From the sequence record OK018184: a stretch of 64,000 nt of DNA, one strand, 5' to 3'. The notes beneath the pieces are model-generated. The model ran no database searches, was not told the DNA's origin, and saw only the letters and a program-made list of their open reading frames with translations. Of the stretch, positions 30,465-36,506 are shown piece by piece. Source of the DNA: Shigella phage CT01. A program made the position numbers and the translations under genes. Position 1 is the first letter of the stretch. Each line of letters begins with the position of its first letter.

Positions 30465-31046
30465 TTAATTACCACGGGCTGCATTAGCAACGGCATAAGC
30501 GTACTGAACATTAGCGTCCTTAAACGTACCTTTAGAGGTATCTATTTCTGCCTTAAAGCCGCCTTTAGCCATAACATCGGCAAATTCTTTACGGAAAGCC
30601 ATTGCATCAAGACCTTTCCATGATGATTTGTGCTTGGCGAATTCAAGACCAGCGTAGTTGACAGCCTTAGCTAATTTATTATCAATGACCCATTTACCGG
30701 CTTTAGGCACAAACTTCGGGCCTTTTTGTTTAGAGAACAGTTTTAAATTCCAGCGACGAAGATCACTGTCGGCTTTAACAAAAGCTGCATCTAAGTTACT
30801 AGCAACAACATCTTCAATATGAGCAAATTTAAGTCCATCAACTTCAATATTTAGATCGTTACGCCAGCGAAGTCCTTCCCAAGCGAAGGCTTTAAAATCA
30901 GAAGCTTTTGTGGCTAGATATCGTTCAAGTGGAGCAGTTTTAGGGTCAAAACCGTTTCCGCCACGATAAGTCCACTCATCTTTATTAATGCCTTTGGCCT
31001 TTACTACAGAAGCTTCAGCAATAAATTCTTGATACGTTTTGAACAT
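30465..31046 (-). CDS. ipIII: internal protein III
   Basis: ATG at 31046 gives a 193-aa protein beginning [12 protein letters not shown], the capsid-targeting leader with a prohead-protease-type cleavage site. Confidence 0.7.
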
Positions 31047-31172
31047 GTTTACGGACTGCACCAAATACGCGTGGTAATTCACGATACTCTGCCATAAGAT
31101 GTTGGTCGGTCAGTTCAGAAACAAGTGTTAAATTGATACGAGTCATAATTTCCTCCAAGTAGTTGATGAATG

Positions 31173-31204: not shown

Positions 31205-31205
<1 letters not shown>
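31173..31205 (-). promoter_or_regulatory. T4 early-type promoter upstream of ipIII
   Basis: Minus strand reads GTTTAC, a 17-nt spacer, then TGATACTAT. Confidence 0.45.
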
Positions 31206-32007
<802 letters not shown>

Positions 32008-32463
32008 TTAAAAGAGGCTGTTCATTATTCGGTAAAGTGAAGGGCCCATCACATATTGCCACTGGGTATGAGGAATAAGAGCAAAAGCATCCATCTCTGG
32101 AATCATAACGCCATCTTTATTTTCAAAATAAGACTCGCAATGGCAATTTCTAAACATCTCATGCTCTACTGGAATCGTATAATAAAATAACTGTAAGTCT
32201 TTATTACTAGAATATTTAAATACACCTAGGTCTTCTAGAAGGTCTGGATTATAATTGCTAAAGCCAGTCTCTTCTAAACATTCTCTTCGTGCTGCATCTA
32301 GCGCGCTTAAATCAGAATTTTCTACACGGCCCTTTGGAATATCCCAGCGATGGGCCATCATTCCAGGCTTACGAGAACCAGTAACCCGTCCCATGAATAA
32401 ATCTTTATCTTCTGTCATAAAGATAATACCAGCTGATAGTGTTTTCATTTTAATTTCCTGCAT
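32008..32463 (-). CDS. nudE: Nudix hydrolase
   Basis: 151 aa with Nudix box GRVENSDLSALDAARRECLEETG. Confidence 0.8.
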   Translation of the reverse strand: MQEIKMKTLSAGIIFMTEDKDLFMGRVTGSRKPGMMAHRWDIPKGRVENSDLSALDAARRECLEETGFSNYNPDLLEDLGVFKYSSNKDLQLFYYTIPVEHEMFRNCHCESYFENKDGVMIPEMDAFALIPHTQWQYVMGPSLYRIMNSLF

Positions 32464-32933
32464 TCAGTGATAAAGTTATTTAAATTTTGAGTATATTTCT
32501 TTTCATCAAAAATCTTTTGTTGTCTGCGTAGCCGCCATGGCATTTCTATGAACGTGTACCATATCCCAGATAATATTGCTGCTGTAAAAATATTAACAAG
32601 TATGGTTAAAAGAATCCAATCTCCTATTCTGTCCATTGGATTTTTTATAAAAAAGTAAAATATGAATGATGTCACAGGAAGACTAATAATATACCACAGA
32701 ATCATAATTTTATCTGTGAACCAATCAGCGTTCGTTAACTTAGCGCGACCATTATAAATACACACGAATTTATCATCTGTTGCAGTAGATGGCTTAACTG
32801 GTTGATATCCCATTCTAAACTCCCTAATTAACAAATTTTTCATATCTTCGGAACAGCCATTCCAGTCAACTCTATCAACTGGAATGCCATCATCCCCATC
32901 ATCTAAATCATACCAGCGAGTTTTTAAAATCAT
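32445..32933 (-). CDS. hypothetical membrane protein, tail-motif family member
   Basis: 162 aa with two hydrophobic helices; C-terminal motif NNFITECRKLK. Confidence 0.5.
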   Translation of the reverse strand: MILKTRWYDLDDGDDGIPVDRVDWNGCSEDMKNLLIREFRMGYQPVKPSTATDDKFVCIYNGRAKLTNADWFTDKIMILWYIISLPVTSFIFYFFIKNPMDRIGDWILLTILVNIFTAAILSGIWYTFIEMPWRLRRQQKIFDEKKYTQNLNNFITECRKLK

Positions 32934-33292
32934 TTAATTTTCCTACAATCACTCACAAACTCTTCCATTGATTCTTTTTCAATATAAGACATGTAGTTAT
33001 TATATTCCTTTAATTGTATTTTGTAATCCTTTTTTCTTTGCCAATTTATTTTAAAATTATCATAATGAAAATATAGCATGGTGCCAAAGAATGAAAATAA
33101 TGAAATCGCTATAGTATAACGAAGTTCACTCCAAACTTCTATTATATTTACTGTGCCGTCAATGTTTAAAATAAGACAGTCAATTAACAATCCAAAAAGA
33201 CTACCCGCAAGAGCTGCAGCCAACGCCACAGCAAAAATTAAAAATGACTCAGGAAGCGAATATTTGACTTTATTTAGTTTTGGCTTTTGCAT
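32930..33292 (-). CDS. hypothetical membrane protein, tail-motif family member
   Basis: 120 aa with two hydrophobic helices; C-terminal motif EEFVSDCRKIK. Confidence 0.5.
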   Translation of the reverse strand: MQKPKLNKVKYSLPESFLIFAVALAAALAGSLFGLLIDCLILNIDGTVNIIEVWSELRYTIAISLFSFFGTMLYFHYDNFKINWQRKKDYKIQLKEYNNYMSYIEKESMEEFVSDCRKIK

Positions 33293-33687
33293 CGTGATTC
33301 CTTAACAAATTTCATAATTTCATCAAATTCATATGCAGCAAGTTTAAGCTGGTGTTCCTTTTTAATCTTTTTGCACTGTGCTTTCCAATCACGTACGCGT
33401 TTACGATAATGTCTTCCTTGATACCAGTATCCTACCCAATTTACAGGTACTAATAAAAATGGAACTACTAATGGAAGAATTAATACTGACAGAAATATTA
33501 CACCAGATTCAATATCAGTCATAACGTCTATAACCATTCCAATAATCAATAGAATTACAAATGATATAGCTGTCACAGGACCTATTAATACATCGGTAGA
33601 AATTATCTGGTGCTTTGGTTCATACTTCAAAGGTTTACTTGGAAGGTATAGTAATGGCTTTGACATATTCTCTACATTCCTTAACAA
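33274..33687 (-). CDS. hypothetical membrane protein, tail-motif family member
   Basis: 137 aa with two hydrophobic helices; C-terminal motif MKFVKESRCK. Confidence 0.5.
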   Translation of the reverse strand: MLRNVENMSKPLLYLPSKPLKYEPKHQIISTDVLIGPVTAISFVILLIIGMVIDVMTDIESGVIFLSVLILPLVVPFLLVPVNWVGYWYQGRHYRKRVRDWKAQCKKIKKEHQLKLAAYEFDEIMKFVKESRCKSQN

Positions 33688-34249
33688 ATTTTTCTAGTAA
33701 TAAATCGCTTTCAAAATTAGGATTTTCCACGAATTTATCAAAAAGATCATCAATAATAGTCAAGATATTCCTTTTATTAAGAATACGCTTATTTTCATAT
33801 TTTGTTTCAGAGTCAACTATAAGAGTAAAGAAATATTTCTTTCCCTGAAATTTTACCGTAGTATCAATATAAAATAAATTTGACTTTTGTAAATTACGTC
33901 TAAACCACGCGTCACTTAAACTATAAACGCCAAGATAATCATAATCGTCATTTAAATAACAAACTGTCCATTCAGGAGAAATGAAATCAGTAAATTCAAC
34001 ATCAAAATCACACGTCAATGAATGAATTGATTCAATACTGTTAATGAGTATTCCAGGACGTATTAAAGACTTTTTACCTCTAGAAAATCTTCCAGAAAGA
34101 CTTTCATCAGTTTCATATGAAGACCCCCAATAGTAATTACGTCCTTCTGCCATACGTTTAAGAGCATTTAGTAATTGGTCTGGAACATCAACCTGTCTTT
34201 GGAACTCTTCAAACATTGAATTGAAATCACTTTGCATTTTCATTTTCAT
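33635..34249 (-). CDS. hypothetical soluble protein sharing the C-terminal motif
   Basis: 204 aa; C-terminal EKFVKECREYVK. Confidence 0.5.
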   Translation of the reverse strand: MKMKMQSDFNSMFEEFQRQVDVPDQLLNALKRMAEGRNYYWGSSYETDESLSGRFSRGKKSLIRPGILINSIESIHSLTCDFDVEFTDFISPEWTVCYLNDDYDYLGVYSLSDAWFRRNLQKSNLFYIDTTVKFQGKKYFFTLIVDSETKYENKRILNKRNILTIIDDLFDKFVENPNFESDLLLEKFVKECREYVKAITIPSK

Positions 34250-34267
34250 TCCTATTTACTCCAAGTA

Positions 34268-34287
34268 TAAGGGGCCGAAGCCCCTTA
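34268..34287 (-). terminator. hairpin terminator
   Basis: AAGGGGC-CGAA-GCCCCTT stem-loop right after the stop at 34291. Confidence 0.4.
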
Positions 34288-34290
34288 TCA

Positions 34291-34884
34291 TTATTTCAGA
34301 GAATTAATGTATTCCTGAACATCGGCAGAGGTAGTTTCAACCCCGGAAATATTACCGTTAAAGGTTTCAACTCGAGCAAGAGTATCTTCAATATCAACCT
34401 TAGTTAGCGCTGCAATTTCAACTACATCATCGGCAGTACTAATTCCAAGGGCATTTGCCGCACGAGTTTCACGGATATATTCCAATTTAACCGCAAGTTC
34501 TTGGCGAGCATCATCTAACTCAACTACTTTCTTGGCGATTTCAATTCGCATTTCAGCATAACCATCAGCTTTAGTAGTCAACTGCTCAGCTGTTCGACGA
34601 TATAGTAAACCGAGCTTAGCATGCATTGTTACATCTTGACCTTCGGAAAGAAGTTTGCGAATTTCACACTCTTTTGATTCGGCTTGTCGATTCTTTTCGA
34701 TAACAAGTTCACGAATACGTTTTTCTTCATTAATAGATTTAACAGAAGCAGTTTTTAGGTCTTTAATTTTATCAAGAAGTTTTGCTGCTGCAGCAGTATA
34801 CTGTTCTTCAACAGATAGATTTTTAGCCATAGCAGAACCAAGTTTAGTGCGAATAAACTCAACAATTTTCTTCAGTGTGTTCAT
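34291..34884 (-). CDS. coiled-coil protein (possibly PspA/IM30-like)
   Basis: 197-aa all-helical protein with heptad repeats; the family assignment is tentative. Confidence 0.45.
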
Positions 34885-34927
34885 AGTATTTCCTTAGGTT
34901 GATTAAAAATTAAAATCTGTGGAAGAA

Positions 34928-35458
34928 TTATATCATGCTATTTAAGAGATGTAAACTATTTTTAATTTTACAAATTCGTTCAGCTTCTTCAACAGCGGCG
35001 GCGATAATGCTTTTAGCTATAGGAGTACTAATACTAGTAGCTTTTACACTTAACACGATTTCTTTATCTTTACCAGGCCAACCCCACGATTTTTCACCGT
35101 GAGTGCCTTTAATTACAGCAGACACCTCAAGTGAGCATCCATTATCATATGTTTTTACATTGACAACCCAAGGTTCACTTTTCTCAATCGGTTTCTCAAT
35201 CGGTTTATCCCAGTAAATATTAAGAATACGTGGGACATCAAATTTGGCAGGACAAATCTTAACTGTAAGACCTTCGCTTTCTAGCCAATTAATAAGAGGG
35301 CGTTCATACAGGCGACGATGTGGGCTTGGGATTCGACAAGCCTTATGTCCGTTGCTTGCGGCTTCACTAAGCTGTTCTAATACCTGCTTTTGCATTATTG
35401 ATAAGATACCATCAAAAGATTTTTCGGAAGTTTCATTCAGTTCGGTATAAAGAGACAT
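34928..35458 (-). CDS. hypothetical protein
   Basis: 176-aa ORF. Confidence 0.5.
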   Translation of the reverse strand: MSLYTELNETSEKSFDGILSIMQKQVLEQLSEAASNGHKACRIPSPHRRLYERPLINWLESEGLTVKICPAKFDVPRILNIYWDKPIEKPIEKSEPWVVNVKTYDNGCSLEVSAVIKGTHGEKSWGWPGKDKEIVLSVKATSISTPIAKSIIAAAVEEAERICKIKNSLHLLNSMI

Positions 35459-36017: not shown

Positions 36018-36506
36018 TTATTTACCTAGTTTAGTTATTATAGCTTCGGCAGCAGCTTTTAGCTTAGATGCAGTGTTAATACGATTTTTAATTTCAGTAT
36101 AAGCATCGCCAAGAACATCAAGGCTATCAGAATAAACACTTACACTATTGCGTTCGCTATTTGAAATAGAACCTTTAGTTTTACGATCAAAATCGGTATA
36201 CACGTCTTGAAGATCACGGGCTGCCTTCTTTGCATCATCCAATGCATCAAGAGCTTTATTCAAAGCATTGACATATTTTTTAGTGTCAAACATATTCTTA
36301 GAAATTTTGAAAAATGCTTTATTGAAATTATTTTCTTGACTCATCGTAAAAGAACTATTATCGATGTTATACATTTCAATAGCTTTAGCTTTCCACTTAA
36401 GAAAATCGCCCCGGTCTTTTGGGTCCAAGTGGAAGAATACTTTAGTAAGATCTGCTTCAGATGGTAATTTTGCTGCTTCGGTTAAAAATTCGGCATAAGT
36501 TTTCAT
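36018..36506 (-). CDS. internal-protein-like protein with capsid-targeting leader
   Basis: 162 aa beginning MKTYAEFLTEA, the same leader type as ipII and ipIII (Leu at P3, Glu at P1); lysine/alanine-rich. Confidence 0.55.
   Translation of the reverse strand: MKTYAEFLTEAAKLPSEADLTKVFFHLDPKDRGDFLKWKAKAIEMYNIDNSSFTMSQENNFNKAFFKISKNMFDTKKYVNALNKALDALDDAKKAARDLQDVYTDFDRKTKGSISNSERNSVSVYSDSLDVLGDAYTEIKNRINTASKLKAAAEAIITKLGK

Follow-up and report, generated by a model that had tools for sequence, protein, structure and literature searches.

Why do four consecutive genes of a T4-like phage share one short C-terminal peptide? The question is raised by a stretch of 64,000 nucleotides from Shigella phage CT01 (sequence record OK018184), hereafter called the window, in which the neighboring genes e.5, e.4, e.3, and e.2 each carry a C-terminal tail of the pattern F[IV]x[ED][CS]R[KCE]. 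An earlier note on this DNA had reported four such genes in a row, and all four tails are present as quoted. Comparison of the window with its relatives shows that the tail peptide is under purifying selection, and that its lysine-glutamate or arginine-lysine codons read as the Shine-Dalgarno (SD) sequence of the next gene, so that the tail, by its sequence, doubles as a translational-coupling junction. The reading that we favor, with confidence about evenly balanced for and against, is that the tail may be an amphipathic helix for docking that forms part of the coupling junctions and has spread as these recombined, with a partner that can be named as a candidate only. The genes and tails are placed as follows.

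33635-34249, minus strand: e.5, a soluble protein of 204 aa with the tail ...LLLEKFVKECREYVKAITIPSK; motif at 33668-33688.
33656-33703, minus strand: C-terminal helix of e.5, residues 183-198, a helix in the AlphaFold2 (AF2) model, containing F-V-K-E-C-R-E at 33668-33688.
33274-33666 (from ATG), minus strand: e.4, a membrane protein of 130 aa with the tail ...EIMKFVKESRCKSQN; motif at 33289-33309.
33289-33309, minus strand: tail motif F-V-K-E-S-R-C of e.4; its K-E codons, AAGGAA, read as the SD sequence of e.3, and its R-C codons, CG-ATG-C, hold the e.3 start.
33367-33387, minus strand: internal tail-like copy in e.4, W-K-A-Q-C-K-K(-I-K), which resembles the e.3 ending F-V-S-D-C-R-K-I-K.
32930-33292, minus strand: e.3, a membrane protein of 120 aa (phrog_2330) with the tail ...SMEEFVSDCRKIK; motif at 32939-32959.
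32939-32959, minus strand: tail motif F-V-S-D-C-R-K of e.3; its R-K codons, AGGAAA, read as the SD sequence of e.2; ATGA stop/start overlap at 32930-32933.
32445-32933, minus strand: e.2, a protein of 162 aa with a soluble N-terminal domain of 75 aa and two hydrophobic segments, and with the tail ...NLNNFITECRKLK; motif at 32454-32474.
32454-32474, minus strand: tail motif F-I-T-E-C-R-K of e.2; AGGAAA reads as the SD sequence of nudE; ATGA overlap at 32445-32448.
32008-32448, minus strand: nudE (e.1), a Nudix hydrolase, the last gene coupled to the array.

The pattern matches four of the 230 six-frame open reading frames (ORFs) of the window and four of the 564 ORFs of the complete T4 genome, in both cases the tails of e.2-e.5. 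Residue shuffles give a mean of 0.002 tail hits and a maximum of one in 3000 shuffles. Chance origin, named beforehand as one explanation that would undo the observation, is thereby excluded; the pattern was drawn up post hoc, but with a very large margin and with independent evidence from the orthologs. In BLASTP comparisons, the match of e.2 with e.3 and with e.4 is confined to the tails, and the weak matches between e.4 and e.3 (E 0.045 or worse) lie within the C-terminal 45 residues. The earlier description of the array as three two-helix membrane proteins and one soluble protein is in line, for e.4, e.2, and e.5, with a Kyte-Doolittle analysis with a 19-residue window: e.4 has two strong hydrophobic segments (residues 31-49 and 55-73), e.2 likewise (residues 78-96 and 106-124), and e.5 has none. 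The agreement is partial for e.3, which has one strong segment and a weaker one below the threshold of 1.6. A two-pass inner-membrane hairpin with both termini in the cytoplasm (N-in/C-in) is a possible topology for e.2, e.3, and e.4.

The motif is kept in orthologs, contrary to the other result that would have undone the observation, and reaches far beyond the T-even phages. When 26 tails from eight groups of T4-like phages are aligned, the consensus is [LIV]-E-x-F-[IV]-K-E-C-R-[KRE], or, written more narrowly, with [KR] at the last position, and the motif is found in Mosig-, Gapriver-, Dhaka-, Jiaoda-, Moon-, Biquarta-, and Pseudotevenvirus and in an Enterobacter phage. Mosigvirus has FIMECRE in e.5, FVKEIRC in e.4, FIKECRK in e.3, and FITECRN in e.2, plus an extra membrane protein of 101 aa that ends in FIKECRGK. 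The Gapriver- and Dhakavirus tails are FI[KAT]ECREYAK in the protein at the e.5 position, FIKEVRN in e.4, FIKECKS in e.3, and FIEECRK in e.2. Tails of the remaining groups are FIKYCRE, FVKEVRRK, and WIKEMK (Jiaodavirus), FVDQCRA, FIKNVRRK, and FIKQCRR (Enterobacter phage), FINLCRD, FVMEMRK, and FIENCKN (Moonvirus), FIDYCRR (Biquartavirus, from Aeromonas), and FIHSCKK (RB43). The Cys is invariant in the e.5 family only; many membrane members have V, M, I, or S instead, so that the residue there acts like a hydrophobic position of the helix and not like a Cys that is essential for its chemistry.

The gene e.6, found in 1106 phage records, allows the motif to be followed by position. Among 37 IMG/VR loci gathered via e.6, the first gene after e.6 has F[IV]xxC[RK] in its last 45 residues in 35, and the two exceptions look frameshifted. 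The e.5 gene appears frameshifted in two IMG/VR contigs (L005/L054:6636-7251; L081:3656-4179), by sequencing error or natural loss. Downstream of e.6, the motif is present in 82 of 292 ORFs, compared with none of 216 upstream control ORFs. The tail is also the most conserved part of these very divergent proteins, in line with the earlier note, which spoke of a conserved tail on otherwise divergent proteins. In 87 e.4 sequences the tail segment is nearly invariant (H=0.01 vs a mean of 0.38), less variable than any other segment of the protein; within Tequatrovirus, the e.2 tail is among the least variable windows of e.2; and FxxECREYxK is the only invariant block common to the e.5 proteins of the T4 type and of Gapriver- and Dhakavirus. 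An exact scan of IMG/VR for F-I-x-E-C-R-K-stop gives 25 matches; those on T4-type contigs lie at real ORF ends, and the others were set aside as chance hits in short ORFs, save for one ORF of 73 aa (L026) that ends in ...FIEECSK and is followed by ATGA. We found no description of the tail motif in the searchable literature. The tail is a real, non-random feature conserved across T4-like phages and, so far as we could establish, undescribed.

Codon usage separates selection on the peptide from selection on the DNA. In 78 distinct tails, Phe is encoded by TTT (57) or TTC (21), Cys by TGT (43) or TGC (35), and Arg by CGT (28), AGA (19), CGC (10), AGG (9), CGA (3), or CGG (1). In addition, 12-30 codons separate the e.5 motif from the stop in avDM7, in RB43, and in the Enterobacter phage, where the motif is clear of the downstream initiation region. 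In the Aeromonas phage avDM7, it is 12 codons before the stop and is followed by a gap of 85 nt, and in RB43 it is about 30 codons before the stop; in neither does it overlap a downstream start. Synonymous variation is thus free and the motif persists without an overlapping start, indicating that selection acts on the protein.

The same codons also serve the next gene. In the window, an SD-like AAGGAA, AGAGAA, or AGGAAA inside the upstream ORF precedes the starts of e.4, e.3, e.2, and nudE, and stop/start overlaps accompany the hexamers at all four junctions, which is consistent with the translational coupling stated in the earlier note. The overlaps measure 32 nt (e.5/e.4), 19 nt (e.4/e.3), and 4 nt each (e.3/e.2 and e.2/nudE, both ATGA); the e.4 ATG sits within the Y-V codons of e.5. 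At most junctions, K-E, E-E, or R-K codons spell AAGGAA, GAGGAA, AAGGAG, or AGGAAA, 5-8 nt before the next start. The final ...K-stop of the tails reads AAATGA, mostly with the next start as ATGA, so that TTT ATT AAG GAA TGT AGA AAA TGA (FIKECRK-stop) is a complete coupling junction. The Arg codon is AGR where it lies in the SD sequence (Tequatrovirus e.3, e.2, and e.5) and mostly CGY where the SD sequence lies elsewhere (Gapriver- and Dhakavirus). Part of the tail similarity is therefore doubly constrained. The position of the e.3 start in the R-C codons of e.4 is probably why the Cys is displaced by two residues in e.4. No RNA structure was detectable at the four junctions (folding z -0.94 to +0.63). 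At the last junction, nudE has two in-frame ATGs (32445-32463), and many records annotate the upstream one (32463, MQEIKMKT...). The upstream ATG lies inside the E-C codons (GA-ATG-C) of the e.2 tail without an SD sequence; the second has AGGAAA at ideal spacing and the ATGA overlap and is therefore the likelier start, giving a protein of 146 aa.

The shared element is the tail and not the protein bodies, which show no detectable homology once trimmed. In hhalign comparisons, E rises from 1.4e-5 with tails to 0.005 without for e.4 against e.3, and from 1.5e-5 to 0.07 for e.3 against e.2. In profile-profile comparison of the T4-type e.5 with the Gapriver- and Dhakavirus protein at the e.5 position, E rises from 7e-6 to 0.33. 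That protein may be an unrelated replacement of e.5, or all e.5-position proteins may form a single fast-evolving family. Tail-trimmed e.5-position proteins are linked in a chain, with E 0.003 between the Gapriver/Dhakavirus and Jiaodavirus proteins and E 6e-8 between those of Jiaodavirus and the Enterobacter phage, and this weak similarity, together with the same position, suggests one family.

Structure prediction supports, with less certainty, that the motif forms a short amphipathic C-terminal alpha-helix. AF2 places a helix at residues 183-198 of e.5 (pLDDT about 64), and the hydrophobic moment is 0.45-0.68, in the top 3-14% of 11-mers in each protein. Counted from the Phe as position 0, the 78 tails present a hydrophobic stripe of L, I, V, F, or M at -3 (77 of 78, although this position is outside the search pattern), Phe at 0, Ile or Val at +1, and Cys at +4. 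With its mixed-charge polar face and narrow hydrophobic stripe, such a helix would be better suited to packing between proteins than to binding a membrane.

The junctions are related to one another as DNA. In the window, AAATTTGTTAAGGAAT recurs at the e.5/e.4 and e.4/e.3 junctions and is followed, after a 5-nt indel, by ATGnnAAAGCC, a homology that extends into the opening codons of the following gene (M-S-K-P and M-Q-K-P); TGYAGGAAAWTWAAATGA is common to the e.3/e.2 and e.2/nudE junctions. Since neighboring junctions are homologous, recombination can add or remove exactly one gene and leave a hybrid tail. Comparison of the loci shows that the gene-precise indels of e.2 in Tequatrovirus and of e.4 in Dhakavirus have their joints inside tail junctions. 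PST, T4_ev240, and one IMG/VR contig (L005) are without e.2 and have the hybrid e.3 tail FV[IS]DCRK+LK; the crossover is within GA(T/A)TGYAGGAAA, and alignment to T4 shows a 22-nt overlap of the e.3 and nudE flanks. The possibility that e.2 was deleted from T4_ev240 in the laboratory was considered and rejected; its identity to T4 is about 96% here, pointing to a natural lineage without e.2. Most Dhakavirus loci are without e.4, and three of them (L015, L016, L018) have the hybrid e.5 tail ...EYAKEVQN+GTA, with the joint within AAAGAGGTTCAAAATG. In p000v and phiE142, e.3 is internally deleted and its last 95 nt are kept, that is, the tail and the initiation region of the next gene. In vB_EcoM-UFV05 (P0162), a natural in-frame e.4::e.2 fusion joins e.4 residues 1-32 at 'PVT' to e.2 from its first hydrophobic segment on, and the rest of e.4, all of e.3, and the N-terminal domain of e.2 are deleted. 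The tails are in part copies spread by recombination. The earlier note does not include the SD/start role of the tail codons, the homologous junction DNA, the gene gain and loss at the junctions, or the restriction of the invariant Cys to the e.5 family.

Are the tails then simply remnants of paralogy or recombination, copies of one ancestral 3' end that each serve as an ordinary structural helix (closing a helical hairpin after the second transmembrane segment (TM2), or packing in the e.5 core) and share no partner? The homology of the junction pairs, the internal copy in e.4, and the finding of e.5 as the sole carrier of the motif over the 3 kb inspected in Biquartavirus and RB43 are consistent with this explanation, and the 'PVT' joint, near the start of each first hydrophobic segment, hints at homologous hairpins. 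However, the same residues are fixed on non-homologous soluble and membrane bodies in many genera while the bodies and the x positions change. Conservation through concerted evolution was rejected, because the x positions vary freely among the tails of one genome; these are not homogenized, indicating that gene conversion alone is insufficient. We regard the remnant explanation as unlikely, if still worth weighing.

A shared function of the tails, such as a common partner or signal, is a reasonable inference from their conservation. We read the tail as a genuine, ancient protein motif. If it is a docking helix, it would bring co-expressed early proteins together on one common partner, or on one another, on the cytoplasmic side of the inner membrane. 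The tag marks the soluble e.5 family and a changing set of small inner-membrane and small soluble proteins after e.5. The same approximately 25 nucleotides encode a selected peptide, carry the SD sequence and start of the next gene, and form a recombination joint, and junction recombination is the route by which the tag reaches unrelated bodies. Docking tails are known from other systems: T4 gp43, gp33, and gp55 have gp45 sliding-clamp binding tails in common, and the C-terminal tip of SSB behaves likewise. Like the e tail, these are short conserved C-terminal peptides on otherwise unrelated proteins, and they dock on one hub; unlike it, they have a different sequence, and several e-tail carriers are membrane proteins. 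The e.6 gene is the constant neighbor of the array and much better conserved than the tag carriers; its predicted product is an elongated three-helix bundle. As a guess, this putative coiled-coil protein is the most economical candidate for the partner. In a more specific form, which we think improbable as it stands, the F-I-x-x-C-R helix would be a plug, e.6 or a conserved host envelope protein would be the socket, and e.5 and changing small accessory proteins, both inner-membrane and soluble, would dock there.

Several observations weigh against the docking helix. Single members are dispensable in nature: e.2 is intact in the window, frameshifted in T4, and absent from PST and PST-type phages, only a remnant of e.3 survives in p000v, most Dhakavirus loci have lost e.4 or never had it, and e.5 appears frameshifted in the two contigs mentioned above. 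In Biquartavirus and RB43, the solitary motif may be part of the e.5 fold or of self-association. The synteny with e.6 is weak evidence, because gene order is generally conserved in T4-like phages. The e.5 and e.4 tails have 16 identical nt, so the similarity among the window tails is partly recent shared DNA and not independent conservation. Finally, the AF2 model of e.5 is of modest confidence (pLDDT 61). The dispensability of single members and the e.5 motif without nearby members make a fixed complex of all four proteins unlikely and a common third partner somewhat more likely.

The helices could instead bind each other, with those of e.5 and of the membrane proteins forming a short heteromeric coiled coil that would anchor e.5 to the membrane, possibly with a metal-binding Cys layer and with stoichiometry set by translational coupling. 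The spacing -3, 0, +4, +7 is heptad-like, coupling favors equimolar synthesis, and one soluble protein stands beside several membrane proteins. Nevertheless, the number of members per phage ranges from one to five or more and their identities change, many membrane members have V, M, I, or S in place of the Cys, and e.5 keeps the motif without other members nearby. We consider tail-to-tail assembly rather improbable.

Far less probable is that the tail is a functionless by-product of translational coupling, its 3' ends alike only through the SD sequence and the overlapping start. The SD hexamers formed by K-E, E-E, and R-K codons, the AAATGA ending, and the switch of the Arg codon to AGR within the SD sequence are in line with it. 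Against it, four positions that belong to neither the SD sequence nor the start, namely F, I/V, C, and the hydrophobic one at -3, are 99-100% conserved with synonymous codons free, and the SD sequence falls on different motif positions in different genes. Further, the motif persists without an overlapping gene in the e.5 of avDM7, RB43, and MY742, and the junctions are without RNA structure. In ordinary ATGA coupling, as at the e junctions, an SD-like hexamer lies 5-8 nt before the start, inside the upstream ORF, and stop and start overlap, but no conserved peptide is imposed, and other coupled junctions of the T4 genome are without the motif. The codon data largely refute this explanation.

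The least probable explanation is a processing, targeting, or turnover signal, such as a cleavage site like the capsid targeting sequence (CTS) or of the gp21 I/L-x-E type, a degron, or a Cys/Arg modification (ADP-ribosylation): it is favored by the likeness of F-I-x-E to the core of the CTS, MKTYxEF[IL]xE, in nearby internal-protein genes (PMC3012670), by the nearly invariant C-R, and by the Nudix hydrolase coupled downstream, but the tail is C-terminal and the CTS N-terminal, the e genes are early and not late, membrane proteins are implausible as capsid cargo, F-I-x-E alone is expected about 10 times per genome by chance, and a distance to the C-terminus of 0 to 25 residues speaks against a strict C-terminal degron.

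Two systems of T4-like phages nonetheless resemble the array. The CTS, a terminal peptide of about 10 residues, is the sole common part of diverse, fast-evolving T-even accessory proteins (IPI, IPII, IPIII, and the polymorphic IP locus) (PMC3012670), and internal-protein genes with an N-terminal CTS, M[FK]KTY[QSA]EF[IL]xE, flank the e cluster in the window (30465-31082, 31205-31486, and 36018-36506, minus strand). Like the e tail, the CTS is a short terminal peptide on diverse accessory proteins, and its EF[IL]xE core resembles F[IV]xE. Unlike the e tail, it is N-terminal, is cut by the prohead protease, occurs on late packaged proteins, and has a known function; the e tail is C-terminal, occurs on early proteins including membrane ones, and has the extra C-R. 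An assignment of the tail to the CTS was rejected on its C-terminal position and on the match to MKTYxEF[IL]xE, which covers F[IV]xE only. The early RNA of the T4 e genes argues against CTS-type gp21 cleavage and head packaging. The second system is the promoter-early stem-loop (PeSL) cassettes, whose junction repeats mediate modular shuffling in T4-type genomes (PMC2839356, PMC4122927). In both, short repeats flank accessory ORFs in hyperplastic regions, and recombination produces indels or replacements there. PeSLs are non-coding intergenic promoter/terminator motifs, whereas the e junctions are a coding repeat with SD sequence and start and have no intergenic space. The e junctions were rejected as PeSLs, having no intergenic space, promoter, or significant RNA structure; whole-ORF indels that end in a repeated junction, as with PeSLs, are found for e.2 and e.4.

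The array sits in a conserved locus. The window belongs to Tequatrovirus, with an identity to T4 of about 93%, and in a nucleotide search its 2.1-kb stretch matches 505 phage records at 92-98.5%. The minus-strand order is e.6, e.5, e.4, e.3, e.2, nudE (e.1), and lysozyme e. The annotated regions of AR1, PST, and T4 align across the whole stretch, with e.2-e.5 between e.6 and nudE/e in the same order and strand, and the e.5-type family always directly follows e.6. Upstream of the tagged genes lie the following features.

34291-34884, minus strand: e.6, a highly conserved upstream gene with a predicted bundle of three long helices.
34267-34288, minus strand: GGGGC-UUCG-GCCCC hairpin between e.6 and e.5; the coupled block starts after it.
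34927-34955, minus strand: strong sigma-70-type promoter-like site just upstream of e.6, TTTACA-17-TG-TATAAT, 11 of 12.

The tetraloop hairpin, GGGGC(UUCG)GCCCC, follows e.6 immediately, stands 17 nt ahead of the start of e.5, and looks like a very stable RNA end or terminator element. Within the array, no promoter consensus rises above shuffles. In T4, the RNA of e.2-e.6 falls in the early class, and mass spectrometry detects all five proteins, e.5 early in infection (PMC9697503 supplement). The T4 annotation starts e.5 6 nt later, at 34243. The e.5 identity is 93-100% to Tequatrovirus e.5 and 48% to that of Mosigvirus. The internal copy of e.4 is kept as [DE]-W-[KE]-x-[QK]-C in the e.4 of Mosig-, Gapriver-, and Jiaodavirus.

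Family searches place the proteins without giving them a function. The e.2-e.5 proteins match phrog_2203, 2330, 2604, and 2607 at E 1e-60 to 1e-110, and near-identical database proteins are labeled PF26896 (e.2), PF26873 (e.4, whose 97 homologs are tagged with it), and PF26876 (e.5). Pfam and NCBIfam scans of e.2-e.6 and two relatives give sub-threshold noise only, e.6 has no match among PDB sequences, an e.5 profile run against 1.84 billion representatives finds close relatives only, and a literature search by gene name found nothing on e-gene function. In many NCBI records e.4 is named 'sulfurtransferase', and one protein of the stretch is named 'serine decarboxylase' in phage SF2-1; the family searches here support neither name. 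Caution is due for 'sulfurtransferase', 'serine decarboxylase', and 'host specificity protein' as names of e proteins, for which no support was found here.

Two features of e.2 stand apart from its tail. In T4, e.2 (L004:4317-4800) is frameshifted in an A-run, ATAAAAATCC compared with ATAAAAAATCC in the window; the annotated T4 product has 102 aa, with TM2 and the tail in another frame, and the intact form of 162 aa is found in the window and most relatives. The truncated T4 product is detected by mass spectrometry (PMC9697503 supplement). The N-terminal domain of e.2 (residues 1-75; given as 32445-32680) has the signature W-x-x-[LI]-D-D-G-[DN]-[DE]-G-I...V-D-W-x-x-C, common to Mosig-, Gapriver-, and Dhakavirus; in the last two of these, the protein is 31 residues longer at its N-terminus. 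For this domain, neither a fold nor a family was found.

The same loci hold another family of C-terminal tags, with the ending W-[VIQY]-S-S-S-x-x-C or, as a variant, W-x-x-S-S-C. Per phage, it is carried by 3-6 soluble proteins of small size (65-118 aa) that are set among the F-I-x-x-C-R proteins, in Mosig-, Gapriver-, Dhaka-, and Moonvirus and related contigs (L003:4551-5345; L046:5211-6290; L047:5566-6335; many of L067-L089), and is absent from the window.

The genes e.2-e.6 are expressed in T4 infection and conserved across T4-like phages, and a tag under protein-level selection is a concrete experimental handle on them. The tag unites at least five sequence-unrelated families as one functional set in phages of Escherichia/Shigella, Klebsiella, Enterobacter, Citrobacter, and Aeromonas. 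One short sequence is put to triple use, as protein motif, ribosome-binding junction, and recombination joint. For conserved tails in compact phage genomes, protein-level and nucleotide-level constraints need to be separated. If the plug-and-socket form is true, a gene recombining into the array would at once be translated and wired to a hub, and T4-like phages would have a built-in mechanism for evolving host-interaction or defense-related functions.

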